Shown one piece after another: positions 279 through 61,463 of a stretch of 64,000 bases of DNA. The notes beneath the pieces were generated by a model, which did not search any database, was not told the origin of the DNA, and saw only the letters and a list, made by a program, of their open reading frames with translations. Within the stretch, counting starts at the first letter, position 1. Every line of letters starts with the position of its first letter. Both the position numbers and the translations under genes were made by a program. The stretch lies in IMG/VR virus record IMGVR_UViG_3300045988_115788. One strand, given 5' to 3'. Origin of the DNA: a virus.

Positions 279-600
279 TTCGCCTAAAATCGCCTATACA
301 AGCTTTTAGCACCTTTGGGTATGTATAGATATAGGTAAGACCTTCCTTGCTTCTCAGCGCGTTCTAGGTGCCTTATAGGCGATATGATGTTTAGTTGTGC
401 ATTATATACATATTCTTTGTTATTATCTTTATAATCTTTGTTGATATTGACGTTGTTCGTCAATATATACAAGTGCGGCCTTGTGTTGTTGTGCATGTTG
501 ACTATATCATTATGTTATCATTATACTTATAGTATTGTGATTGGTGCGGCCCTTGGTTAATGTGTTGTGTTTTGTTGTTGTATTTTGTGCAAGTTGGCTA

Positions 601-3937: not shown

Positions 3938-4117
3938 CTTTATAGAAAATAAGAAAGGGGGTAAAAAGAAAATAAGGGAGACTGCTTCACAGTGCAAGAG
4001 GCAGGGGCAATTCTGAGAAAGCCCATAAGTGAGGAGAGGGAAAGCGCGGGGAGGTTGGTATGATTTCCTATTCAGCTAGTAGGTTTAATGCATTAAAAAG
4101 TAAAAGAAAAATTTTTC

Positions 4118-4146
4118 TTGACTTCCTGGACAGATTTTGATATTAT
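4118..4146 (+). promoter_or_regulatory. promoter TTGACT-17-TATTAT
   Basis: Hexamers and the 17-nt spacer were counted directly. Confidence 0.6.
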
Positions 4147-4196
4147 AATAATAGTATAAAATAGAAAGGGCGGCGCAAGCCGTAAAGGTGAAGGCT

Positions 4197-4373
4197 ATGA
4201 TTACTAAAAAAGAATACTCTGAACGTTGGGAACGTTTTCTTGTGGAATATTGCCATTGTTACGCGGACGAGAACGGAAATCGCCCTTGCGATAATGGAAC
4301 ACTGTGCAACTACTGTGATAGTATGATAGATATTTTTTGGGATGAAATCAATAGAGTAATCAATACAAATTAA
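4197..4373 (+). CDS. small Cys-rich hypothetical protein
   Basis: Contains CHCYADENGNRPCDNGTLCNYCD. It is the only sizeable ORF in the 3640-5440 region and a terminator follows. Confidence 0.45.
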   Translation: MITKKEYSERWERFLVEYCHCYADENGNRPCDNGTLCNYCDSMIDIFWDEINRVINTN

Positions 4374-4387
4374 AAGCAAATATCGGA

Positions 4388-4419
4388 AAAGAAAGAGGCA
4401 CCAGTCTCTTTCTTTTTTT
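4388..4419 (+). terminator. rho-independent terminator
   Basis: aaagaaagag / ctctttcttt stem followed by a T-run. Confidence 0.65.
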
Positions 4420-4836
4420 GTCCTTATATTTCTTATAAACCAATATCTAAAATAAAAAATCCTGGTCTAAGTGTTTCAATTTTGAAACAGTCAATTTGCA
4501 CAATTTTATAATATTTTTTTGTTCATTTTGCAAATTGATTTTCTTAAAAATAAAGTGTAAAATTGAGGGCGGAGGGAGGGTATAGATAAAATAGATATTT
4601 GTTTATAAAAGATATAATCTTGTGTCTTCCTTCTTTGCATCTGCGTCAATGCGCACAGCAAAAACCGATACTGCGCCGCTCAGACCTGCGAGAATGGGCC
4701 TAGAAACAATTCTAGCATTAAATAGGTCAAACTATACCGATTTACAATGTGGGCCTTATAGCGCATTTTAGACGGGTCACAGAATGTTTTGTGTAAAATA
4801 GTCAAAAAAATAATATAATTTTGTGCAACTTGCTAA

Positions 4837-4865
4837 TGGACAAGTAGGTAGATTTTTGATAAAAT
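4837..4865 (+). promoter_or_regulatory. promoter TGGACA-17-TAAAAT (TG-extended)
   Basis: Read directly; preceded by TTTTGTGCAACTTG at 4819-4832. Confidence 0.45.
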
Positions 4866-4871
4866 CGTGTT

Positions 4872-4962
4872 ATGGTGCTTGACTTGCACTCTTTTTTATG
4901 TTATTATAGCCTTGCAAATCAGGAACGGAAAAAACCGGTTTGATTGCAAGGCTTGTTTTTTT
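4872..4962 (+). ncRNA. candidate short RNA (about 50-90 nt) ending in a long hairpin terminator
   Basis: Two promoters are followed at once by gccttgcaa...ttgcaaggc and a T-run. No ORF is present. Confidence 0.35.
4879..4907 (+). promoter_or_regulatory. promoter TTGACT-17-TATTAT
   Basis: Read directly. It abuts the hairpin terminator at 4909-4962. Confidence 0.55.
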
Positions 4963-5119
4963 AAGAAAAATTTGTTATCGGTTAGCATGGCAACAAAAAA
5001 ATCTCTTAAGAGCAAGTGCAAACCTTGAAAAATAGTGGTGGATTGCTAAACACCCAATAAAGTATAATTTTTATTGAAAAGTATGCGGCTGGATTAAGTC
5101 GATAGCAAATTTTTTTGTT

Positions 5120-5166
5120 GAAAAGTATCTTTTAAGTTCGATATTTGGCAATAAAAGATACTTTTC
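5120..5166. repeat. 15-bp perfect inverted repeat gaaaagtatctttta / taaaagatacttttc
   Basis: Arms at 5120-5134 and 5152-5166 are exact complements. Confidence 0.6.
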
Positions 5167-5439
5167 GCCGGAGTTATTTGGTTTTGTGATAACAAATATT
5201 TGTTGTACAAAATGCACAAATTAGGTATTTATCATTAACAAATATCTTTCAATGATTGATACTTGTTTTTGAAAAAACATTTGATTTTGGTGAATATTTG
5301 TTATTATCAAATCGGGTTCGCGTTCGCGTCGCATTACGTTGTTTTTAAAATTCTGGGGCAAATAAAAAATTCCCCCAGATATATACATTAAGTATTTATT
5401 GGTGTACTATATAATGTATAATATTATTTTATTAAGGAG

Positions 5440-6120
5440 ATGATTGTTATTTTAAAAGATTTAACAGGAAAGCGCTTCGGACGTTTATTTGTTGTTGGCC
5501 CTGCTCCCAGAAAGAATAATCGAACTGCTTGGCGTTGTAGATGTAATTGTGGAAACTATACAGATGTTTTAACTCGCAATTTAACAACAGGAAACACAAA
5601 GTCTTGTCGTTGCCTTGAAAAAGATGTTTTTAAACCTAATTTATATTCTTTAGGAGATAAAGTTAGCATAGGTTATTGTGCAAATGGGAGAATTTTTCTT
5701 TTTGATACCGAAGACTATGACAGAATTAAAAAATATAAATGGCGCTCAAATAAAAAAGGATATATTTCAACTCAAATCAACGGAAGAACAACAAGTTTAC
5801 ATCGTTTTATTTTGAACGTGGACAAAGAAAAAGAAGTTGACCATATCGAAGGAAAACCCTGGGACAACCGAAAAGAAAAACTACGAATCGTAACTCATCA
5901 AGAGAATATGATGAATAGAAAAAAGTCTGCTAGAAATTCAACTGGTGTTACAGGGGTTAGCATTGATAAAGACACAGGAAAATTTCGTTCTGAAATTTAT
6001 TATAATGGGAAGAAGTATTCGTTAGGTCGCTTCAAAACTTTGGAAGAAGCAAAACGAGTAAGAATACAAGCAGAAGAAGAATTTTTTAAAGACTACGCTA
6101 GGAAGGAAGAGTTTAGATGA
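5440..6120 (+). CDS. free-standing HNH endonuclease with C-terminal AP2-like DNA-binding domain
   Basis: EVDHIEGKPWDNRKEKLRIVTHQENMMN is an HNH-type motif. GVTGVS...YYNGKKYSLGRFKTLEEAKRVR is AP2-like. Confidence 0.75.
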   Translation: MIVILKDLTGKRFGRLFVVGPAPRKNNRTAWRCRCNCGNYTDVLTRNLTTGNTKSCRCLEKDVFKPNLYSLGDKVSIGYCANGRIFLFDTEDYDRIKKYKWRSNKKGYISTQINGRTTSLHRFILNVDKEKEVDHIEGKPWDNRKEKLRIVTHQENMMNRKKSARNSTGVTGVSIDKDTGKFRSEIYYNGKKYSLGRFKTLEEAKRVRIQAEEEFFKDYARKEEFR

Positions 6121-6398
6121 ACATCGAGCTGTACAGGGAGGGGGTCGCAAAGTTCTACACCGAAGACGAACGGAAGAAAATGAAGCAAGCCATGACAACG
6201 TTTAAAGAAAAGCTTGTGGAAAAGCTCGGTTTGTTCTACGATGAAACAGAAATGACACAAGAAGAGCGCGTAGCTTATGCAGAGCATGAAGTCTCTTTGT
6301 TTTTGATTGAGGCTCTTGTTGCTAAGATGTACGAGGAAGGTGTACCAAAAGAAGAAATTCTGGAGGTGCAAAACAACTTGTGGAATCCTTTTGATTGA
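6117..6398 (+). CDS. hypothetical protein
   Basis: ATGA overlap with the upstream gene; 93 aa. Confidence 0.6.
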   Translation: MNIELYREGVAKFYTEDERKKMKQAMTTFKEKLVEKLGLFYDETEMTQEERVAYAEHEVSLFLIEALVAKMYEEGVPKEEILEVQNNLWNPFD

Positions 6399-6670
6399 GC
6401 CAGAAAATTTAATTTTATTTTTCTGTTGAAGGAATAAGTCAAAAGTTTTGTCGCCAAAACCACCCCTTCACGAGCCAGAAAATTCAAATCGAAAATCGAG
6501 ACTGAGATTCAAAATTAGATTTATTACCGCCAAAACTACCCCTATCAAATAAAAACAGAAAACTTGTTAATAAATGACAAAAACAGCTTGAAGAGCCAGA
6601 AAATTGAAATTTAAAATCGAGATTGATGTTTTTTATTTGTAGGAGTTTAATTTTAATTGTGGCTTCGAGC
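6397..6670. repeat. iteron-like direct repeats (3x GAGCCAGAAAATT, 2x CGCCAAAACYACCCCT, 2x AAAATCGAGAYTGA)
   Basis: Copies at 6397, 6472 and 6593; 6452 and 6528; 6491 and 6613. Read directly in a noncoding stretch. Confidence 0.6.
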
Positions 6671-6706
6671 GGACAAAGTTCTGAAAAATTTTTTCAAAAA
6701 AAAGAC

Positions 6707-6735
6707 TTGACAAATCAAGAAAAATATGGTATAGT
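6707..6735 (+). promoter_or_regulatory. promoter TTGACA-17-TATAGT
   Basis: Read directly. Confidence 0.7.
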
Positions 6736-6761
6736 AAATACAATTAAAGGAGGTGAATAAA

Positions 6762-7013
6762 ATGCTGATTGAAACTACTGAAGATTTTAAAACAGCAAAG
6801 AATGTAATTCTAAAAGGGGGCATCCAAACAATTACCCCTCATGCAGGTACAAATATTAAAGTTCTAGCATACAAGGATGAAATGCTTTTTCTTGAAGTTG
6901 AATCTAATTACATTAAAGAAGTTATTCTTAATCTAAAGACTGGAACGAAGTATTGGTTATCTACCGAACCCGTGTCCTATATATTATATAAAATACGGGA
7001 CAGAAAATTTTAA
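6762..7013 (+). CDS. hypothetical protein
   Basis: ATG at 6762 lies 8 nt after AAAGGAGG, preferred over the track GTG at 6753. Confidence 0.6.
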   Translation: MLIETTEDFKTAKNVILKGGIQTITPHAGTNIKVLAYKDEMLFLEVESNYIKEVILNLKTGTKYWLSTEPVSYILYKIRDRKF

Positions 7014-7021
7014 AAAAGGGC

Positions 7022-7050
7022 TTGACAAATTAAGAAAAATATGATATAGT
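7022..7050 (+). promoter_or_regulatory. promoter TTGACA-17-TATAGT driving the tRNA cluster
   Basis: Near-identical to the promoter at 6707. Confidence 0.7.
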
Positions 7051-7070
7051 AAATACAGAAATTAAGAAAC

Positions 7071-7147
7071 GGGCCTTTAGCTCAGTTGGTTAGAGCCTCC
7101 AGCTCATAACTGGAAGGTCGTGGTTTCGATTACCACAGGGCCCACCA
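7071..7147 (+). tRNA. tRNA with CAT anticodon (Met or Ile2), CCA encoded
   Basis: Clean cloverleaf folded by hand: acceptor gggcctt/agggccc, D-arm gctcagttggttagagc, anticodon loop ctcataa, T-arm gtggt-ttcgatt-accac. Confidence 0.9.
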
Positions 7148-7148
7148 T

Positions 7149-7223
7149 TGCGGGTTGAGTGTTGGCGCTCCGCTTGGTCTCATAAGCCAAGTTACCTCAG
7201 TTCGATTCTGGGACTCGCTTCCA
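7149..7223 (+). tRNA. second CAT-anticodon tRNA, noncanonical
   Basis: T-arm ctcag-ttcgatt-ctggg, loop ctcataa and encoded CCA are present. The anticodon stem extends to about 7 bp and pair 1:72 is a T-T mismatch. Confidence 0.6.
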
Positions 7224-7229
7224 CCCCAT

Positions 7230-7267
7230 TTCAGCCACAATGACCTACGGGCTCGTGGCTGAAATGT
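7230..7267 (+). other. 11-bp perfect hairpin atttcagccac / gtggctgaaat between tRNAs
   Basis: Read directly; no T-run follows, so it is possibly a processing element. Confidence 0.5.
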
Positions 7268-7375
7268 TAAAACTTGTATCTACGCTGAAACTGTGCAAGC
7301 TCCTAACTCTTCGAGAAGGATGAAGGTGATTCAGCTCAAAGTTGGCAGTCTTTGAGAAGTTAAAACTGCCTCTAT

Positions 7376-7450
7376 ACTGGTGTAGCTCAATTGGTAGAGC
7401 GACTGCCTTGTAGCAGCAGGTCGGGGGGTCGAGTCCGTCCACCAGCTCCA
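7376..7450 (+). tRNA. tRNA, anticodon probably GTA (Tyr-type, short variable arm), CCA encoded
   Basis: D-arm gctcaattggtagagc and acceptor ctggtg/caccag fold well. Pair 1:72 is A-C, the loop-closing pair is C-A, and the T stem has one mismatch. Confidence 0.6.
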
Positions 7451-7613
7451 GCGCAGATTGTTGAGTGATTTAACTGCGTGTAAACAAAAATAAAATCACA
7501 TTGCAAAAAGATTTTCCTTCGGGAGTAGCCAAAGATATGTTAGAGATAAGTATTTTTGGCGATTAAGCAAATCTGTTTGCGGTAAGCAGGGTATGAACCA
7601 AAAACCGCTTTAT

Positions 7614-7693
7614 GGCAAAGGTGATGTAACAGCAAACCATCTTAGTTTTGCGATGACTAAGTTATGCGGGTTGGAGTCCCGCCCTTGCCGCCA
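7614..7693 (+). tRNA. tRNA-like element, possible GCG (Arg) anticodon, degenerate
   Basis: T-arm gcggg-ttggagt-cccgc, acceptor ggcaaag/ccttgcc with one A-C mismatch, then g-cca. No GG in the D-loop and the T-loop reads TTGG. Confidence 0.35.
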
Positions 7694-8070
7694 ACACGCA
7701 TTGAAAATTAAATAGTAAATTCTTTGGTTCTCTATCTCCTCCGTTGTTTAATTTTTCATTTATCTCCTTTCTTTTTTGTTTTTGCTATTTAGTTTATCAA
7801 TGCGTTATATCGGGCAACAAACCGCATGAAGTTTGAAGCCTGCTGATGATTTGTTTTTAGAAAAAGCGCTTTTATGGTTCTCTTCCCCCATCGAATCATT
7901 TAAGCGCTTTTTCTGTACTCCCTGTAAAAAATGTGAAAATGAAGCAAAAACTCGCTGTAAAAAGTGTAAATTGTGATTATCAATAAAACACTGGCTTGTT
8001 TTTTGTATTAATTACCTATTGTAAAGAAGGGAAAGAAGTTGTATAATACAATTTAGAAAGGAGGCGAAGT

Positions 8071-8326
8071 AACATAATTAAGTCCTTTAAGATACGTTTA
8101 TATCCAACAAAAGAACAAGAAGCGGCTGAAATATAAATCTGAATGGGCTGGTATTGAATTTGTTCAGGTTAGTAGATTCTATCCAAGTTCTAAAACTTGT
8201 TCTTACTGTGGCAGTGTTAAAAAAGATTTGAAATTAAGTGATAGAACTTATATTTGTAATATGTGTGGCGCAGTAATTGACCGTGATTACAATGCCGCTA
8301 TTAACCTTAGTAGATATGTAATTTAA
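8071..8326 (+). pseudogene. tnpB: internally deleted TnpB remnant (N-terminal about 20 codons fused out of frame to the C-terminal Zn-finger/RuvC-III part)
   Basis: IIKSFKIRLYPTKEQE then a stop. After a frame change: YKSEWAGIEFVQVSRFYPSSKTCSYCGSVKKDLKLSDRTYICNMCGAVIDRDYNAAINL. Confidence 0.7.
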
Positions 8327-8473
8327 ACAGAGAAATTGCAATCTTGAGGTGTCGTTACACCTGTATGTTGTGGAGGGTTACACAAACTTGAGTAGCTTTG
8401 GCGAAAGAGAATCCAATGAAACAGTAAGTTGATTTTTAATTAACATAACGAAAAATATAAGGAGGTCAACGGA

Positions 8474-9010
8474 ATGAAAAAGTTGATTGTTATGATTCTT
8501 GCAGGTATGATGGTATTGAGTATGGCGGCTTGCGAAAATCAGCCATCAGAAGAAGCAAGTAGTGAATCATTAACTCAAAACGCAACTCAGGAAGAGAGTT
8601 TTTATCTAAGCCCCAATACTATGGTCGCTCTTCAGCGTTGTTATAATAATCTTAAAGAACTGGGCGATGCTGGTATGGTTATTTGTGACGATGTGGTTGT
8701 GTTTGATGCAGGAAGCAAGAGCGGTGAAGTTGTTTGCGCTAAAGTTATGTATGCTGAATACGAAGGTGTTATTGAGGGTACAGAAATCGAAATTAGCTTT
8801 GATGAATATGGGCTGATTGATGGTATTTACGTTGAAGGCAATCCTTGCTTCATTGGCGCGAGAGAGTGGTATTTAAGCGCAGATGCGGAAACTCGAAGAA
8901 AAGCAAGCGAGAAATTTACTTGTTACAATGCCGCAAAGGTGGTATCAGAAATGCGCTCCTGGAAGGGATATGAAAGCACTTTTCTCGCAAGAAATTATCT
9001 AAAAAATTAA
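8474..9010 (+). CDS. putative lipoprotein
   Basis: N-terminus MKKLIVMILAGMMVLSMAAC is a signal peptide with a lipobox Cys. Confidence 0.7.
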   Translation: MKKLIVMILAGMMVLSMAACENQPSEEASSESLTQNATQEESFYLSPNTMVALQRCYNNLKELGDAGMVICDDVVVFDAGSKSGEVVCAKVMYAEYEGVIEGTEIEISFDEYGLIDGIYVEGNPCFIGAREWYLSADAETRRKASEKFTCYNAAKVVSEMRSWKGYESTFLARNYLKN

Positions 9011-9018
9011 AAAAGTTC

Positions 9019-26841: not shown

Positions 26842-26990
26842 CATAACACTTTCAAGTTATTACAGATATGTACTGATATGTTAGTCAGGAATTTACGCCT
26901 ATGGAGAGCACAAGAACTTGTGAGTAGTGATTGGCTTGTCAACACAAAAACATACTCGTTGAAGTAGGAATGGAACATAAAAGTTTATAA
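26842..26990 (+). ncRNA. omega-RNA-like right-end remnant of the truncated TnpB
   Basis: Shares tatgg/gtggag...cacaa..acttg.gtag..ttggc blocks with the sequence 3' of the remnant at 8327-8440. Confidence 0.3.
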
Positions 26991-36574: not shown

Positions 36575-37759
36575 TTGGTACAAGTAATCAAACGTAACGG
36601 AGATGTTGTTGATTTTCAACGAGACAAAATTTCTGTTGCAATCCAAAAGGCAATGAAAGAAGTTAGAGATGAAATCAATACTTATGAAGTCAGAGCAATA
36701 ACTGATAAAGTAATTGACTCTATTGAACAACGAAAAGAAAATATTAATGTAGAAGAAATTCAAGATATTGTAGAACGTGCGCTTATGACTAGCGGCATGA
36801 AGGATGTGGCGAAGAGTTACATTACTTATCGCTATTTGCATGGTCTTATTCGAGAATCAAACACTACTGATAGGACTATTAAAGAACTTATCAATGGTGA
36901 AAGCGAATATTGGAACAGTGAAAACAGCAATAAAAATCCAACACTTGTTACTACTCAAAGAGATTATATCGCAGGAATCACAAGTACAGATATTGCTAGA
37001 CGTTTTTTACTACCCAAAGATGTTGTTGAAGCACATGATAAGGGCATTATTCATTTCCATGATATTGACTATTTTGCGCAAAAAAGTTTGACGAACTGTG
37101 AATTAGTAAATCTTGAGGACATGTTGCAAAACGGAACGGTAGTCAATGGAGTTGGCATTGATAAGCCCCATAAGTTGCTTACTGCCGCTACAATCGCTAC
37201 ACAGATTATTGCAGCAGTAACAAGTTCTACTTATGGTGGGTGTACTATTAACCTTTCTCATTTGGCTCCATTCGTAAGAGATAGTTACAATATTTATTAC
37301 AAAAAGTATGAGCAACGAGGTTTTAGTCCAAGTGAATGCCAAAAGTGGGCAGAGCAAGATACTAAGAAGGAAATTGAAGACGCAGTTCAAACCTTTAATT
37401 ATCAAACTAATTCCATGACTAATACCAATGGCCAAGCTCCATTCTTGTCTGTGTTCATGTATCTCAATGACAATCCAGAATATATCAAAGAGACAGCAGC
37501 ATTGATTAAGGAATTCTTTAATCAACGTATTCTAGGATTTAAGAACGAAGTTGGCCAATATATCACACCAGCCTTTCCAAAGCTATTGTATGTTTTGGAT
37601 GACAATAACATTACCGAGGATTCTGAATATTGGTATCTTACCCAACTTGCAGCAAAATGTACTGCTAAAAGAATGGTACCAGATTATATCTCTGCAAAAA
37701 TTATGCGAAGAGATAAAGTTGATAAGAATGGTAATGGTAATGTCTATGGCTGCATGGGT
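36575..37759 (+). CDS. nrdD: anaerobic ribonucleoside-triphosphate reductase NrdD, exon 1 of 3 (TTG start)
   Basis: ATP-cone VIKRNGDVVDFQRDKI. The exon ends at ...VYGCMG, just before the conserved CRSFL. Confidence 0.8.
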
Positions 37760-38073
37760 CAGCGTAAACTACAGCTCATGTAAAATCCTTTGAACCGTGC
37801 TAACGGGTGTCTATATGATATTTATTATATAGGCTAACGGTTAGGTCTTAATAACCCATTACACTATTAAGATGAGACCGTGGGAAGTTTAATCTTGCCA
37901 CTTTATGACAAAGATTGAAAACCTGTATCGACCATCCCTGATGAATGTATGGGAGTAGGGCTGGAGATAAGCACCAGCAGTGTTTTAGGAAACGAAGCAC
38001 TTGAAAACCAAAGCGGAGGACTATCGAAAGATAGAAGATATGGTCAGTGCCAATGGTGACATTGGATAACATG
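37760..38073 (+). mobile_element. putative ORF-less group I intron 1 in nrdD
   Basis: Removing the 314 nt joins GCMG to CRSFLTPY in frame. The 5' exon ends in T and the intron ends in G. Confidence 0.6.
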
Positions 38074-38970
38074 TGTAGAAGTTTTTTGACACCTTATGTA
38101 GATGAGAATAACAAACCGAAATATTGGGGTCGATATAATCAGGGCGTCGTAACAATAAATCTTGTAGACGTTGCATTGTCTTCTGGCGGAGACTTTGATA
38201 AGTTTTGGCATTTGTTTGAAGAACGGACAGAATTATGTCACAAAGCATTACAGTGTAGACATGAACGAATTGCATTAGCTACATCTGATGTAGCTCCTAT
38301 TTTATGGCAACATGGCGCATTAGCAAGATTGCCAAAAGGAGCGCCAATTCACCCATTACTTCATAATGGCTATTCTACGCTCTCCCTCGGCTACGCTGGA
38401 TTGTATGAGTGCGTTAAATATATGACCGGCGAATCTCATTCCCATGGAAAAGGATTTGATTTTGGCATTAAAGTTATGCAAGCACTCAATGATAAGTGTG
38501 CTAAATGGAAAGAGGCAGAAAAGATTGACTACTCGCTTTACGGCTCCCCCATTGAAAGCACTACCTACAAGTTTGCAAAATGCTTAAAAACAAGATTCGG
38601 CGAAATTAAAGACATTACAGACCATGATTACGTCACAAACAGCTATCATATTAATGTTCGTGAAGTAATTGACCCATTTGACAAACTTGCTATTGAGGCC
38701 AAATATCAAAAATTAAGCCCTGGCGGAGCAATTAGCTATATTGAATGTGCCGATTTGACCAATAATATTCCTGCGGTTCTTGAAGTAATTAAATTCATTT
38801 ATGACAATATCATGTATGCAGAACTTAACACAAAAAGCGATTATTGCCAAGTATGCGGTTACGAACATGAAATTGAAATTATTGATGAAGATGGAGAACT
38901 TAAATGGCGTTGTCCAAATTGCGGCAATGAAGACCAAAACAAGATGAATGTCGCTCGGAGGACTTGCGGT
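38074..38970 (+). CDS. nrdD: NrdD exon 2 of 3
   Basis: CRSFLTPY... through the Zn ribbon CQVCG...CPNCG to ...ARRTCG. Confidence 0.8.
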
Positions 38971-39851
38971 AAAGATATTGCCGCAGTAAAATGACTTAAA
39001 TTCAGAGGAAACCTAAATCTTATATAGACATGGCAATTCTGAGCCAAGCTGATTTATATTATTTTATTATAGAAAGAGGTGATAATGGTGTTAGAACACA
39101 AATGCGAAGTATGTGGTAGATTATATAGAAAAAAACTAAAAGCAGATGGGAAAATTGTATGTAATAAACATTATAAACAATTTAAAAAATATGGCAAATT
39201 TACAGACCATTCCCCAAGAATACAAACGGACAAAAATAATATTACAATCGTTGGAGATTTAGCGTATATTGATTTATACGATAAACATTATGAAGTTATT
39301 GCACAGGCAATAATTGACGCAGAAGATGTTAATCTTGTTAAGAATATTAAATGGAGATTGAATGGCAACGGATATGTTATGAACAATTCCTCAAAGCATA
39401 CGACATTTTTACATTCTTTGATAATGCATACTAAAGAATTAGTAGACCACAAAGATACTAATACACTAAACAACACAAAAGAAAATTTAAGAATCGCAAC
39501 TAAAAGTCAAAACCAAATGAATGTAAATTATAAAGGATATTATCTGGTTAACAATAAATGGATTGTGCATATTAAGTTACATCAAAAGCAATTACATCTT
39601 GGAGTGTATTATATAGAAGAAGAGGCGCAATATGCAAGATGGTATGCGGAAAGAATTGTGTTCAAGGAATTTGCTTATCCAAAAGAAGAGCCATACATCC
39701 CAGAACATAGAAAAGCTCAAATACAAGAATATATAAATCAGAAGGTGCAGAGACTATAATAGTCACTATTGTCCTAACAATTAAAATGTATGGGAAATAG
39801 AAGGTATAGTCCACTCCCCTAATAAATATCGGGAAACCGAGGGTACAAAGG
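38971..39851 (+). mobile_element. putative group I intron 2 in nrdD carrying an HNH-AP2 homing endonuclease
   Basis: Removing the 881 nt joins RRTCG to YIGSQFWNQGRTEEIKDRYVHL in frame. The 5' exon ends in T and the intron ends in G. Confidence 0.65.
39085..39759 (+). CDS. intron-encoded HNH endonuclease with AP2-like domain
   Basis: LVDHKDTNTLNNTKENLRIATKSQNQMN is HNH-type. HLGVYYIEEEAQYARWYAE is AP2-like. Paralogous architecture to 5440-6120. Confidence 0.7.
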   Translation: MVLEHKCEVCGRLYRKKLKADGKIVCNKHYKQFKKYGKFTDHSPRIQTDKNNITIVGDLAYIDLYDKHYEVIAQAIIDAEDVNLVKNIKWRLNGNGYVMNNSSKHTTFLHSLIMHTKELVDHKDTNTLNNTKENLRIATKSQNQMNVNYKGYYLVNNKWIVHIKLHQKQLHLGVYYIEEEAQYARWYAERIVFKEFAYPKEEPYIPEHRKAQIQEYINQKVQRL

Positions 39852-39941
39852 TATATTGGTTCTCAATTTTGGAATCAAGGACGCACAGAAGAAATCAAGG
39901 ACAGATATGTTCATTTAGATAACCACTCTTTGGAGGAATAA
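39852..39941 (+). CDS. nrdD: NrdD exon 3 of 3 (glycyl-radical C-terminus)
   Basis: YIGSQFWNQGRTEEIKDRYVHLDNHSLEE ends 1 nt before the nrdG ATG. Confidence 0.7.
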   Translation, partial: YIGSQFWNQGRTEEIKDRYVHLDNHSLEE

Positions 39942-39942
39942 A

Positions 39943-40491
39943 ATGAATTATTCTTTAATTAACAAAGTAGATATAGTAAATGGCCCAGGAATCAGAATTT
40001 CCCTTTTTGTTTCTGGCTGTAATAGACATTGTAAAAACTGTTACAACAAAGAAGCGCAAAATTTTGATAACGGAGAACCTTTTACTCAAGAAACATATAA
40101 AACAATCTTAGAACATGTAGCAAAGACTCATTGTTCTGGACTATCCATTTTAGGCGGCGAACCATTAGACCAAGACGCAAATGGGTTAATCGCTTTATTT
40201 GAACTTGTGCAAGACGTACACAAGCTAGGTAAAACTGTGTGGCTATGGACAGGATATACTTGGCAAGAAGTGTTTGATAAAATTGTAACAGACCCCAAAG
40301 CTTGTAATATGCGCCCTTATCTTCAACAAACTTTACTGTCTGAAGTTGATGTTGTAGTCGATGGGCCTTTTGTTGAAGATAGTAAAGACTTGTCTTTAGC
40401 TTTTAGAGGTAGCTCAAATCAAGGCATCATTGACGTGAAAAAGACTTTAGCAAACGAATACATTACTTTAGTTGAATATATGATTAGATAA
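39943..40491 (+). CDS. nrdG: anaerobic RNR activating enzyme NrdG (radical SAM)
   Basis: VNGPGIRISLFVSGCNRHCKNCYN carries the CxxxCxxC cluster motif. Confidence 0.85.
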   Translation: MNYSLINKVDIVNGPGIRISLFVSGCNRHCKNCYNKEAQNFDNGEPFTQETYKTILEHVAKTHCSGLSILGGEPLDQDANGLIALFELVQDVHKLGKTVWLWTGYTWQEVFDKIVTDPKACNMRPYLQQTLLSEVDVVVDGPFVEDSKDLSLAFRGSSNQGIIDVKKTLANEYITLVEYMIR

Positions 40492-41216: not shown

Positions 41217-42533
41217 ATGAAAACAATGAAATTAGGTAGCTTGTTTGATGGTTCTGGTGGGTTTCCACTTACCGCCTGCTTGTGTGGAATAATACCAGTC
41301 TGGGCCAGCGAAGTTGAGCCGTATCCGATAGCTGTCACACGGAATAGATTTCCAGAGATGAAACATTTAGGAAATGTTAGTACAGTAAACGGTGCTGACA
41401 TCGAACCCGTGGACATCATCACCTTCGGCAGCCCGTGCCAGGACATGAGCATGGCTGGTCGGAGAGACGGCTTGGATGGAAAGCGTTCTAGTCTTTTTTA
41501 TGAAGCTGTCCGAATTATTAAAGAAATGAGGTGTGCCACTAATGGCAAATATCCAAGATACATCGTATGGGAAAATGTTCCTGGAGCTTTCTCCTCAAAC
41601 AGAGGAGAGGATTTCAAAGCCGTCCTCGAAGCGGTCATTGGAATTGTCGAACCGAACACCCAGGTGCCTATGCCTGAAAAAGCACGATGGCCCTACGCCG
41701 ACCTTTACATGGGAGACGGATGGAGTCTTGCGTACCGAACTCTTGACGCTCAATACTGGGGAGTCCCCCAACGCCGTCGTAGAATCTACCTTGTCGCAGA
41801 TTTTACAGGCAGAGGTGCCGGAAAAATACTATTTGAGCGCGAGGGCCTGCAAGGGTATTTTACAGAGGGCAGAACGCCGTGGGAAACCGTTTCCAGAAGT
41901 TTTGCGCCTCGCACTGGAGTGGCAAGCAACCTCTGCCTAAACGACCAAGGCGGGAACCGCATGGAATGTTCCGAAGGAGTGGCACCTACACTCCGTGCGG
42001 AAGCTCATGGTCACCAGCCCTGTGTCCTACGGTCGGCAGGATTTTGCCCTGAAGTCTCTGCCAAAACCAGAGGCATTGGTTGGGGAGTTGAGCGTTCACC
42101 CACGCTTCGTGCAGGTGCTGTTCCCGCCGTTAATGTACAAGAAAATCATTCAACTGTCTTTGCTCAGAGCCACAAAGACCCTCCGACCGTGACGGAAGGG
42201 CCACAGTACATTGTCCGCAGACTTACTCCAACAGAATGTGCAAGGCTACAGGGATTCCCCGATGAGTGGGGAGAAGTTGGTATGATGAGTGATTTCTCCG
42301 ACACGGACTATCAGTTTTGGCTTGGTGTGCGTAATACATACGCTACTATTAACGGCAAGGCAATCAAAGACTATACTAAACCACAAATGTTAACATGGTA
42401 TAACAAACTACACACAGACGGTGCGGAATACAAAATGTGGGGAAATGGTATTGCCCTTCCTACCGCCCTATATGTGATGCAGGGAATTGCGGATTACTCA
42501 AAAGGCAAAAAGGAGGCAGATTATGAAGCGTGA
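41217..42533 (+). CDS. dcm: DNA (cytosine-5) methyltransferase
   Basis: FDGSGGF (I), GSPCQDMS (IV), ENVPG (VI), QRRRRIYLV (VIII), TPTECARLQGFP and GNGIALP (X). Confidence 0.9.
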   Translation: MKTMKLGSLFDGSGGFPLTACLCGIIPVWASEVEPYPIAVTRNRFPEMKHLGNVSTVNGADIEPVDIITFGSPCQDMSMAGRRDGLDGKRSSLFYEAVRIIKEMRCATNGKYPRYIVWENVPGAFSSNRGEDFKAVLEAVIGIVEPNTQVPMPEKARWPYADLYMGDGWSLAYRTLDAQYWGVPQRRRRIYLVADFTGRGAGKILFEREGLQGYFTEGRTPWETVSRSFAPRTGVASNLCLNDQGGNRMECSEGVAPTLRAEAHGHQPCVLRSAGFCPEVSAKTRGIGWGVERSPTLRAGAVPAVNVQENHSTVFAQSHKDPPTVTEGPQYIVRRLTPTECARLQGFPDEWGEVGMMSDFSDTDYQFWLGVRNTYATINGKAIKDYTKPQMLTWYNKLHTDGAEYKMWGNGIALPTALYVMQGIADYSKGKKEADYEA

Positions 42534-59777: not shown

Positions 59778-61184
59778 TTATTCCTTTCTAATTTGCGGCT
59801 CATTTAAAATATCGTGTATTTTATCAAAGATGTCCATAGGCTTAGATTTCATTTTAGCAAGATAATCTTTTCGTTCGCAAAGAGGTATGAATCCATTATA
59901 CATCATCGACTCAATTTTCTTTGATTGAAGGTCAAGAAAAATCTTTAATTGTTTTTTAGAACAATAATAGACCCAACCACAATAATCATTCCAAACATAT
60001 TTGATATAACATTTAAAAGGTTTATTTTGTTGACTCAAATATTGAATGAAAGTAGATACAAACTTTTTATCCATATTATATATGGTTCGATAGCAACCAA
60101 AATGTTTTGCATAGCCTCTCCAACATTGGTATGTTACACAAATATCATCTATTGACATTTTTCCCTCGTCAGCCCATTTCTTGAAAATTTTTAATTTTCT
60201 TCTAATTCTTTTAAGACTATCTTTATTCAATTTTGTTACGATTTTTCCACTATCTGTCAAAGTAAATCTAATTTTCAAAAAAGTAAAACTATGGTGCTTA
60301 AAAGGAGTTATGCGATTTTTCTTTTCGTTTATTTTTATGCCAACAGAATTGGCTAATATTTCAACAAAATTTTTTATCTCTTTTAGTTCTTCAAAAGAAT
60401 TGCTGATTACATAACCATCATCCATATATCTGCCATAACCTTTTATGCGAAAAACATCTTTAATGTAATGGTCTATAAGATTAGCATAATCTAAAGCAAT
60501 ATTTTGTGATATTGGACTGCCTAATCCAACTCCAAATGGCCCCTTAGAATCATGTAAAGTAAGAAATTCATCAATAAATTTATCTCCAAGAACAATCAAC
60601 TGTCTATCTTTTATATATTTTCTTAATTCCATTTTTGCACCTTCATGCGGAATTGAAGCAAAATATTTAGAAAAATCATATTGATAAATGCCTCCTTTAT
60701 AACCATACTTTCTATAATGATGCCGCAGTTGCTTTTTTAGCATCTGTATGGCAAAGTGGATACCTTTATTTTTCAACGAAGCTGAATTAGTTGAAACAAA
60801 ACTTTTAGAATAAGCTTCTGTCATTATTTCGTTGCAAAAACACTTTTGAACCGCTCTATCTTCAATATTCAAAGCATGTATGTCTCTTATTTTTCCATGC
60901 TCATTTGTTTTAAAGAAGCAAAAGCCATGAAATTTATAGGCATTAGCATCCATCTTTTTCTTTAATTCAAAAGACCTTATTAACAATTCATTTTCAAAAT
61001 TTTGTACTGAAGTTTTCCATCTAACTCCTTTACAACATTCTTTTGATGCTCTATATAAATTTTCAAAAGAATAAACTTCATCATAACTTTTATTTACTAT
61101 ATTTCTTTTCTTTAAATCTCTTTTTGCTTTACGCCTTAAATATCTTTTCTCATGGCGCTCTTTACTTGTCAGAATTTTCACCAC
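59778..61184 (-). CDS. DGR reverse transcriptase
   Basis: RT motifs IYQYDFSKYFASI, GLGSPISQNIALDY (DGR-type SQ motif) and GRYMDDGYVI (YMDD). Adjacent TR and avd. Confidence 0.9.
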   Translation of the reverse strand: MVKILTSKERHEKRYLRRKAKRDLKKRNIVNKSYDEVYSFENLYRASKECCKGVRWKTSVQNFENELLIRSFELKKKMDANAYKFHGFCFFKTNEHGKIRDIHALNIEDRAVQKCFCNEIMTEAYSKSFVSTNSASLKNKGIHFAIQMLKKQLRHHYRKYGYKGGIYQYDFSKYFASIPHEGAKMELRKYIKDRQLIVLGDKFIDEFLTLHDSKGPFGVGLGSPISQNIALDYANLIDHYIKDVFRIKGYGRYMDDGYVISNSFEELKEIKNFVEILANSVGIKINEKKNRITPFKHHSFTFLKIRFTLTDSGKIVTKLNKDSLKRIRRKLKIFKKWADEGKMSIDDICVTYQCWRGYAKHFGCYRTIYNMDKKFVSTFIQYLSQQNKPFKCYIKYVWNDYCGWVYYCSKKQLKIFLDLQSKKIESMMYNGFIPLCERKDYLAKMKSKPMDIFDKIHDILNEPQIRKE

Positions 61185-61463
61185 TTTTTATTTTAATTTT
61201 TTCGTATAATTTTTAGTTTTGTTAAAAACTAAGATAATTTGCTAATTACATAACTGGTACCTATGAAATTTGTCTAAAATTATCAAACAACAAACCATGC
61301 AAGAAGCGTCCAGGACACAGTATCGAAAAAATAATTTAGGATGCCAAAGCAGAGCCAAGGATATTTCCCCCTTCTATGAAAAGATTATTTTCACCTAGCA
61401 AAAACTAGGTTACTTCTCAATCCCAGTAGCCATCTATAACCAAAAAATGGCGGCTACTATTGG

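Follow-up and report, generated by a model that had tools for sequence, protein, structure and literature searches.

Why does a viral gene come apart into three pieces, and why do the breaks lie exactly beside the two codons that carry the radical chemistry of its product? The gene is nrdD, and it occupies positions 36575-39941 of a 64,000-nucleotide (nt) stretch of DNA, the IMG/VR virus record IMGVR_UViG_3300045988_115788, referred to here as the window. An initial annotation, made from the sequence and its open reading frames (ORFs), joined the pieces into one class III ribonucleotide reductase (RNR) and took the two inserts for group I introns. The comparative analysis described here leads to much the same picture. 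The locus is very probably a phage nrdD–nrdG operon with two mobile group I introns inserted in nrdD, intron 1 at the thiyl-radical cysteine and intron 2 at the glycyl-radical glycine. The relatives of the window are Clostridia phages (Enterocloster phages, at ~64% amino acid identity).

The first part of the answer comes from the protein. When the exons listed in the table are joined, as had been proposed, their lengths of 1185, 897 and 90 nt add up to 2172 nt in a single frame, which encodes 723 amino acids (aa) with no internal stop; the coordinates proved exact. Exon 1 holds the ATP-cone and the N-terminal part of the barrel and ends in NVYGCMG (last codons TGC ATG GGT), exon 2 runs from CRSFL (TGT AGA AGT TTT) through the Zn-ribbon to ARRTCG (ACT TGC GGT), and exon 3 opens with TAT ATT GGT and closes with the stop codon at 39939-39941. 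The joined sequence reads GCATGGGT followed by TGTAGAAG at junction 1 (in longer form, GGCTGCATGGGT followed by TGTAGAAGTTTTTTG) and TTGCGGT followed by TATATTGG at junction 2 (in longer form, AGGACTTGCGGT followed by TATATTGGTTCTCAA). By every membership test applied, the product is the class III RNR NrdD. It scores 857 bits against the NCBIfam NrdD equivalog NF006732 (cutoff 657) over model positions 3-709 of 712, which bears out the colinearity with NrdD families that was to be checked, and it matches the Pfam families NRDD (580 bits), Gly_radical (63 bits) and ATP-cone. An uninterrupted homologue, MT835469, is 62% identical to it across residues 1-722.

The protein also tells where the breaks lie. 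The spliced NrdD aligns without gaps over both junctions to PDB 9d3x and to the T4 NrdD structure 1h78. Junction 1 is the boundary between G395 and C396 in the thiyl-radical loop, and C396 aligns to the thiyl-radical Cys290 of T4. Junction 2 is the boundary between G694 and Y695 in the glycyl-radical motif, and G694 aligns to the glycyl-radical position 580 (an Ala in the crystallised T4 protein). The GCRSFL Cys-loop and the C-terminal RxCGY motif are restored by the joining, just as the initial annotation had it, and the Zn-ribbon cysteines CQVC...CPNC are present as well.

Read without splicing, the gene falls apart. The inserts measure 314 nt (with no ORF, as claimed) and 881 nt, neither length divisible by three, and the unspliced frames stop eight codons inside each of them, after QRKLQLM and KDIAAVK, respectively. 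The ORF list contains these frames as had been described: a 402-aa frame at 36575-37783 that ends in NVYGCMGQRKLQLM and a GTG-started 315-aa frame at 38047-38994 that includes CRSFLTPY and ends in ARRTCGKDIAAVK. One could consider that no RNA splicing takes place and that the three pieces are translated separately and then assembled, as happens with the Aeh1 NrdA that mobE splits, or that they are joined by another route. Functional fragmented RNR genes without an intron are known (PMC3045599, as cited in PMC3653736), and the GTG-started frame is there in the ORF list. Even so, this explanation is very unlikely, since exon 3 codes for 29 aa and lacks a start codon, the GTG at 38047 falls within the P9 hairpin of intron 1 with no ribosome-binding site, and breaks in the Cys loop and right after the radical Gly would sever the active site between separate chains. 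It would also leave the complete, covarying ribozyme folds of both inserts unexplained.

Those folds argue for two group I introns. The last letter is T in both upstream exons and G in both inserts, which had been noticed at the outset and is read directly at the two junctions. Each insert has a P1 helix whose splice-site pair is a U·G wobble, pairing between guide and exon, a P3-P9 core with the P3/P7 pseudoknot, and a terminal G. Together with compensatory changes among homologues, these features support the proposed group I identity of both inserts, and this comparative evidence is stronger than the covariance-model test discussed below.

Intron 1 lies between GGT (Gly395) and TGT (Cys396). 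In P1, the 5' exon CAUGGGU pairs with GCUCAUG (37774-37780), and in P10 the adjoining CUACA (37769-37773) forms 5 bp with UGUAG, the first five bases of exon 2. A BLAST search with the insert found a 32-nt match, 94% identical, in the T4 nrdD intron, and more than 120 IMG/VR stretches were retrieved by the P7-P7.1 pattern. The ends of this intron family are constant: in all 77 members whose 3' end could be recognised, the last base is G and TGYAGR comes next, which encodes the Cys-Arg of the NrdD loop, and in the members with an identified 5' end the 5' exon always ends in ATGGGT (the P1 and P10 statistics of the family come from a by-eye reading of ~20 such sequences).

The core of intron 1 was followed in alignment A1, which contains 43 non-redundant cores of the family and covers P7, P7.1, P7.2, an extra hairpin, P8 and P9. 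Paired cells make up 97.5% of it, compared to 79% in column shuffles and 31-45% with slid partners, and compensatory change is seen in 22 of the 31 pairs. Four of five pairs covary in P7.1 and likewise in P7.2; P7 is conserved in sequence and shows no covariation. RNAalifold, run on seven full-length members without an ORF, returned a consensus that includes the long-range P3, two hairpins, P4-P5, P7.1, P7.2 and P9, with 27 of 47 pairs covarying. In 20 of the 21 members put through an unbiased duplex search, P3' lies immediately 5' of P8, and the mean duplex energy is -8.1 kcal/mol for self-partners versus -4.95 kcal/mol for non-self ones. Some other pairings were tried along the way. P3 as CUUUG/CAAAG, or an alternative GCU/AGC pairing, was dropped because the duplex search and RNAalifold place P3' next to P8 on its 5' side, and an alternative P4 that uses the strand of the first hairpin was rejected because that hairpin covaries independently (CCUC/GAGG, CCGC/GCGG).

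Because P7.1 and P7.2 are present between P7 and P3', intron 1 is assigned to type IA2, and the comparisons place it in the lineage of the T4 nrdD (sunY) intron, a group IA2 intron that encodes I-TevII and sits in the same host gene. The two share the guide block GCTCATGTAAAATC, the 32-nt P7-P7.1 block, the J8/7 segment GAAGATATAGTC, P7.2 and a P9 hairpin with a GTGA loop, and the 5' exon heptamers are similar, TATGAGT in T4 (L005, AF158101 43535-46385, minus strand) and CATGGGT in the window. They differ in that the T4 intron is located ~120 codons upstream of the Cys loop (QAYE/YEV, ~residue 275 in window numbering), lacks both hairpins that intron 1 has between P3 and P4, and carries a GIY-YIG ORF at its 3' end, whereas intron 1 has no ORF. 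The T4 intron may be an ectopic offshoot of the Cys-loop lineage, as its 5' exon AUGAGU still fits the guide GCUCAUG.

Intron 2 lies between GGT (Gly694) and TAT (Tyr695), and its P1 joins the 5' exon UUGCGGU to GCCGCAG (38980-38986). Seven further introns occupy the very same bond: L001 (Enterocloster phage CB473P3), L058, L215, L217, L227, L255 and L256. Alignment A2 is made up of seven mini-introns from which the ORF was deleted, those of the window and six relatives (L256 omitted). In A2, 98.3% of the cells are paired, compared to ~40% in slid controls, and 20 of 49 pairs show compensatory changes, which are located in the exon-guide P1, P3, P4, P5, P6 and P8. One pair of the exon-guide P1 covaries between C-G and U-A, and the U·G is invariant in all seven sequences. 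P6 encloses the ORF, whose last codons (KVQRL and the stop) overlap the 3' strand of P6, J6/7 and the 5' strand of P7. Merely UAA stands between the P7 5' strand and P3'; P7.1 and P7.2, the criterion for IA2, are absent, and intron 2 is therefore not to be filed under that type. More than 230 records of phages from Staphylococcus, Listeria, Enterococcus, Bacillus and other Firmicutes contain matches to its last 50 nt, at 84-98% identity (90-95% in most cases), and the majority of these matches fall in unannotated intragenic gaps. The cassette AARGTGCAGAGACTATAA, formed by the ORF end and P7, also occurs in 51 IMG/VR stretches (L206-L256), other protein genes included. Some introns with this cassette (e.g., L207, L212 and L219) appear to lie within phage tRNA genes, as a T-arm-like sequence of the GGTTCGATCCC type follows downstream.

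The ORF of intron 2 was annotated initially as an HNH-AP2 endonuclease, and the first half of that name has held up better than the second. Its 224 aa begin at the ATG at 39085, behind a Shine-Dalgarno sequence AGAGGTG (39075-39081), with an alternative GTG start at 39079, and they include an N-terminal CxxC...CxxH finger and the HNH motif VDHKDTNTLNN...N. Residues 120-145 match Pfam HNH_3 with 30.0 bits (cutoff 24.8), and the whole matches phrog_99 at E=1.7e-22. The best PDB match is a very weak one to I-HmuI, 1u3e (E=0.48), across the DHKD...N motif. Taken with its location in an intron, these profile matches identify the product as a predicted HNH homing endonuclease. For AP2, zero Pfam families were found at E<=10 on residues 146-224, and BLASTP of the ORF against an AP2 domain sequence, taken as that of Arabidopsis ERF1, gave zero alignments. 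A resemblance seen by eye (YKG...W...LG...EEA..Y) is a lead only, unconfirmed by profile or BLASTP. The Pfam scan detected no NUMOD domain either.

How the locus would work can be pictured from established group I chemistry, from which the splicing steps are taken. Both introns would be transcribed inside the nrdD pre-mRNA, and each would fold as a group I ribozyme, with helices P1 to P10 and the P3/P7 pseudoknot at its core. An external guanosine would attack just past the last U of the exon, held by the guide in the U·G wobble, and the freed exon end would then attack past the terminal G of the intron. Ligation would restore GGU/UGU (Gly395-Cys396) and GGU/UAU (Gly694-Tyr695), and with them an mRNA for a single 723-aa NrdD.

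Several points weigh against this picture. One is the Rfam test, suggested with the initial annotation, which both inserts failed. The group I model RF00028 has a gathering score of 50 bits and is an operational classifier rather than a structural definition; at this threshold the window gave zero group I intron matches. A permissive scan of 37650-40000 gave 24.6 bits (E=0.0015) at 39002-39080, the P4-P6 part of intron 2 only, and 19.1 bits (E=0.065) for a full-length alignment at 37807-38066 in intron 1, where the T4 sunY intron, the positive control, reached 105 bits. Related introns in 13 loci were scanned too and none of them scored above the threshold, which argues for a blind spot of the model rather than a defect of the introns; it is still a failed test. 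Since the model is blind to the whole set, the comparative analysis was used. Also, intron 1 has two hairpins at an unusual place, between P3 and P4, and another after P7.2, and these probably explain its poor alignment to the Rfam model. In intron 2, P10 is weak (ATAT at 38975-38978 with bases +2 to +5 of the 3' exon, four A-U pairs and a mismatch at +1), and P7 and P9 are invariant in the seven A2 sequences, so covariation is uninformative for those helices. Finally, the splicing of the window's introns in vivo, the activity and specificity of the intron 2 endonuclease and the route of spread are all inferred. A third intron was hinted at by GATATAGTC at 500-508 (minus strand), but this is at chance level (3 matches versus 1.8 expected) with zero Rfam signal.

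The low scores could instead mean that the inserts derive from group I introns and are no longer autocatalytic. One or both would then be decaying remnants that splice poorly, or only with the help of proteins, in an nrdD on its way to becoming a pseudogene. The lost ORF of intron 1, its unusual insertions in J3/4 and after P7.2 and the weak P10 of intron 2 would all suit such decay. However, the three exons are intact and colinear with all catalytic motifs kept, and the core helices are all intact in the window copies. The extra hairpins are conserved and covary over many independent contigs, a sign of selection on the RNA, and ORF-less family introns of ~283 nt recur in nrdD genes that are intact once spliced. 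Decay is thus an improbable explanation, though the likeliest of those considered besides two working introns.

The second part of the question, why the introns are found where they are, calls for a comparison with relatives. The closest one, L053, is 93-96% identical to the window in the syntenic flanks at the nt level, and its NrdD is 90% identical. L053 has a form of intron 1 that contains an ORF, and it has no intron 2; its intron-less Gly-site allele reads CGCAGGACGTGCGGTTACATAGGCTCTCAA. The presence/absence polymorphism comes with a mosaic in the coding sequence (CDS). Between the window (36575-39941) and L053 (4001-6990), identity is ~98-99% at CDS 1-420 and 1860-2172, and it drops to ~77% over the central 1.4 kb that surrounds intron 1; this suggests that the middle of the gene was exchanged along with that intron. 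Within the ~98-99% identical 3' end, ten substitutions cluster at CDS 2055-2091, around the site of intron 2. A patch of this kind is the pattern expected from co-conversion of exon flanks during homing. Window and L053 thus offer a natural pair of intron-plus and intron-minus alleles for studies of homing and co-conversion.

In a mixed infection, the HNH endonuclease of intron 2 would nick or cut nrdD alleles that lack the intron, in the region of the Gly-radical codons, and recombinational repair would copy the intron and a short exon flank into the cut allele. The close relative of intron 1 in L053 carries an HNH ORF in its P6 region, and intron 1 itself would have lost its endonuclease. 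Intron 1 would be maintained by splicing cleanly, and its only routes of spread would be co-conversion and the help of an endonuclease acting in trans. As for the choice of site, the DNA sequences of the radical-chemistry codons are the least variable in the gene. They would therefore be reliable targets for an endonuclease and reliable pairing partners for a guide.

Both sites turn out to be visited repeatedly. Among 80 nrdD relatives in IMG/VR, ~47 are uninterrupted and the others have inserts, including the same introns at the identical phosphodiester bond. The fetched loci that span both sites number 164; the insert is confined to site 1 in 68 of them and to site 2 in nine, and none has inserts at both. 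No fetched locus besides the window has the two introns together, compared to ~3.7 expected under independent occupancy. The loci were fetched by pattern searches, so the sample is biased and enriched for the intron 1 family, and no conclusion on the independence of the two sites can be drawn from it. The combination found in the window is uncommon among the fetched loci. Where intron-bearing alleles were found, the base triplet before the insertion point is GGT in every case; in uninterrupted alleles, the Gly codon at site 1 is GGC (16), GGA (9), GGT (8) or GGG (5), and at site 2 just 6 of 53 have GGT.

The Cys-loop junction is a crowded homing site. The intron 1 family occurs between G and C at this junction in many loci, as an ORF-less intron of ~283 nt or, in L053, as one of 818 nt with an HNH-like ORF. 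It is also found in nrdD of 36 bacterial genome or metagenome-assembled genome contigs, some with NrdD clades just ~25% identical to that of the window, and in all it spans phage contigs and Clostridia, Bacilli, Bacteroidales and other genome bins. A distinct group I intron with an HNH/NUMOD-like ORF lies 4 nt upstream (TGC AT/G GGN TGY) in L061 (~5229-5996) and L081 (~5166-6052).

At the identical junction, nine loci (L062-L066, L069, L071, L072 and L077) have an in-frame insert of 371-372 codons (CVDGKE...SGIYSHN; e.g., L062 2888-4000). It starts with Cys and ends in His-Asn, with the radical Cys next, and Pfam finds LAGLIDADG_3 (52.5 bits) and Intein_splicing (35.2 bits) in it, which identifies it by its sequence as a LAGLIDADG intein. 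As it sits at the exact Gly-Cys junction, the thiyl-radical Cys would double as the +1 nucleophile of the intein. Two intron lineages and an intein would therefore compete for one 4-nt stretch. The intein raises the question of whether the inserts of the window could be some other mobile element, be it an intein, a group II intron, an insertion sequence or a miniature transposon. Its use of the same junction in other contigs speaks for this, but the lengths and early stops of the window's inserts do not allow an intein, and there is no reverse transcriptase, domain V, terminal inverted repeat or target duplication in them. With a group I core in both, the idea is refuted by frame and structure and its probability is negligible.

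The presence of one sunY-related lineage in such distant NrdD clades, of a second intron lineage and of the intein may mean that the GGU/UGY boundary of the thiyl-radical loop is a pan-clade homing site, a tentative idea that is rather more doubtful than probable at present.

The Gly site is more varied than the window suggests. It has two insertion positions that are 1 nt apart, one after GGT and one after GGN-T, where T is the first base of the Tyr codon. Inserts at the second position are found in L002 (4445-4737), L006 (6087-6420) and L049 (6177-6866); the latter two carry the 3' cassette of intron 2, L002 has a distinct 3' end, and the 5' halves of all three are unlike that of intron 2. 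Additional nrdD inserts in relatives lie at N174/C175, Q287, ~residue 553 and ~residue 613. One record, L058 (IMGVR_UViG_3300045988_145847, 4001-9015), has three nrdD inserts of ~912-951 nt each, at N174/C175 (a conserved Cys), at ~GG/AISY (residue 613) and at G694/Y695. We take C175 to be the counterpart of T4 Cys79.

Split RNR genes are not new to phage biology, and the initial annotation, which regarded the coincidence of two introns with two radical codons as a striking case of homing, was right about the positions. The case is less striking than it seemed because each site is occupied recurrently in gut-phage nrdD and because multiply split phage nrdD genes have been published, with evidence of splicing at the transcript level (PMC12880540 and PMC3653736). 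Among RNR genes, nrdD is reported as the one most often split in cultured phages, with examples in T-even phages, an intein in Clostridium phage c-st and an intron in Lactococcus phage 949 (PMC3653736). In 95 of the 104 genomes of Jug jumbo gut phages, group I introns, endonucleases and inteins divide nrdD into as many as four fragments, and metatranscriptomes provide evidence of splicing (PMC12880540). The hosts of the Jug phages are Bacteroides, whereas the window's relatives are Clostridia phages, and PMC12880540 and PMC3653736 do not appear to map the insertion points onto the radical residues. In the open-access literature, no paper was found that places introns exactly at the thiyl-Cys and glycyl-radical codons of NrdD.

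Other known systems resemble the window in part. The nrdE gene of Staphylococcus phage Twort has two group I introns, one of them with an HNH endonuclease (Landthaler et al. 2002, in PMC3984707 and PMC3653736). Like those of the window, they adjoin functionally important conserved residues and include one HNH homing endonuclease; the gene is a class Ib nrdE rather than a class III nrdD, and the insertion sites and intron 5' halves differ. The bnrdE/bnrdF introns and intein of SPbeta are an earlier coincidence of intron and intein (“Lightning strikes twice,” cited in PMC3653736). There too, a single RNR gene is the target of both introns and an intein, at conserved sites; nrdD differs in being class III and in having intron and intein at exactly the same Gly-Cys junction, in different contigs. 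More generally, homing endonucleases favour the codons of critical residues (PMC3984707 and PMC3653736). The DNA polymerase intron of SPO1 carries I-HmuI, a nicking HNH enzyme, and so has an intron-encoded endonuclease of the HNH_3 type in a Firmicute phage, as the window does, in a different gene and with different DNA-binding modules.

What does this mean for the study of such phages? The current understanding of group I introns and of NrdD stays as it is, and the locus would come as no surprise to a specialist in phage introns. It is neat that the breaks coincide with both radical residues, and the case cleanly illustrates the rule by which homing elements settle at the codons under the tightest constraint, here those of the two radical-carrying residues. 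The survey adds that at least three kinds of mobile element compete for one nrdD junction. The practical consequence is for annotation, in which the gene would appear as three fragments or would be split into a truncated nrdD and a hypothetical protein. For example, in the deposited record of Enterocloster phage CB473P3 (L001, OP172757, 2146-5276), the nrdD CDS is truncated and runs into the intron at the Gly site, the HNH ORF of the intron is labelled “hypothetical protein,” and the last nrdD exon is unannotated. Since the standard Rfam model misses these introns, nrdD genes of gut phages are probably under-called systematically. On a more speculative note, two ribozymes at two radical residues might make active NrdD conditional on the state of RNA folding or translation; in that case the introns would have a regulatory role and would not be neutral.

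Table. Features of the nrdD–nrdG locus, with positions in the window; P, paired region; J, joining segment.
Feature	Position	Strand	Basis or remark
nrdD exon 1	36575-37759	+	residues 1-395; ORF list, spliced translation, NF006732, NRDD and ATP-cone matches
nrdD exon 2	38074-38970	+	residues 396-694; spliced translation, structure alignment, profile matches
nrdD exon 3	39852-39941	+	residues 695-723, YIGSQFWNQGRTEEIKDRYVHLDNHSLEE, and stop; spliced translation, structure alignment
nrdG, radical-SAM activase of NrdD	39943-40491	+	TIGR02491 154.9 bits (cutoff 126.1); Pfam Fer4_12
Intron 1, assigned to group I, type IA2, no ORF	37760-38073	+	boundaries, T4 homology, covariation, RNAalifold, P3 duplex test
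Intron 1 internal guide sequence	37769-37780	+	read from sequence; GCTCATGTAAAATC block also in T4 sunY
Intron 1 P3 5' strand TCCTTTG	37786-37792	+	partner CGGAGGA 38014-38020; duplex search, RNAalifold
Intron 1, two extra hairpins between P3 and P4	37795-37806, 37811-37832	+	RNAalifold; covary across family
Intron 1 P4-P5 stem	37838-37880	+	RNAalifold columns 78-92 with 112-127, compensatory changes included
Intron 1 P6 hairpin	~37882-37923	+	limits approximate
Intron 1 catalytic core	37929-38065	+	alignment A1, 43 sequences
Intron 1 P7 5' strand; 3' strand	37929-37934; 38041-38047	+	
Intron 1 P7.1; P7.2	37935-37954; 37959-37977	+	
Intron 1 extra hairpin after P7.2	~37978-38002	+	
Intron 1 P3'; P8	38014-38020; 38021-38034	+	J8/7 joining segment AAGATA
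Intron 1 P9; terminal G	38050-38065; 38073	+	
Intron 2, assigned to group I, with HNH endonuclease ORF	38971-39851	+	boundaries, partial Rfam match, A2 covariation, 3' conservation
Intron 2 guide sequence	38975-38986	+	sequence reading; P1 covariation in A2
Intron 2 5' half	38992-39058	+	A2, compensatory changes in P3, P4, P5 and P6
Intron 2 P3 5' strand TGACT; P4-P5	38992-38996; 39001-39043	+	P4-P5 followed by GCCAAG
Intron 2 P6 5' strand CTGATTTATA	39049-39058	+	
Predicted HNH endonuclease ORF, 224 aa	39085-39759	+	ORF list, Pfam HNH_3, phrog_99
Intron 2 3' core	39732-39851	+	A2; conserved cassette AARGTGCAGAGACTATAA
Intron 2 P6 3' strand; P7 5' strand; ORF stop TAA	39732-39741; 39750-39756; 39757-39759	+	
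Intron 2 P3 3' strand AGTCA; P8	39761-39765; 39766-39800	+	
Intron 2 P7 3' strand TAGTCC; P9; terminal G	39807-39812; 39817-39843; 39851	+	

The surroundings of the gene complete the picture. The start of nrdG lies 1 nt past the stop codon of nrdD, and for this reason the two are taken to form an operon. Downstream of nrdG is a 438-aa ORF resembling DNA cytosine-C5 methyltransferases (41217-42533, plus strand), part of which has 84-86% DNA identity to two “NatCom” phages from human faeces. Two tRNA genes are located at 7071-7144 and 7376-7447 (plus strand). The window also has several RNA motifs of other kinds: an RT-2 motif (RF03077) at 61177-61427 on the minus strand, well over threshold at 93.4 bits; two RAGATH-18 motifs (RF03064) on the plus strand, at 26898-26970 (67.6 bits) and 8367-8427 (55.3 bits); and a type-P5 twister ribozyme (RF02684) at 1212-1270 on the plus strand (62.1 bits), which overlaps the start of a 137-aa ORF (1218-1631). 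In Enterocloster phage CB473P3, a skipping-rope RNA is found at 6216-6295 on the minus strand.

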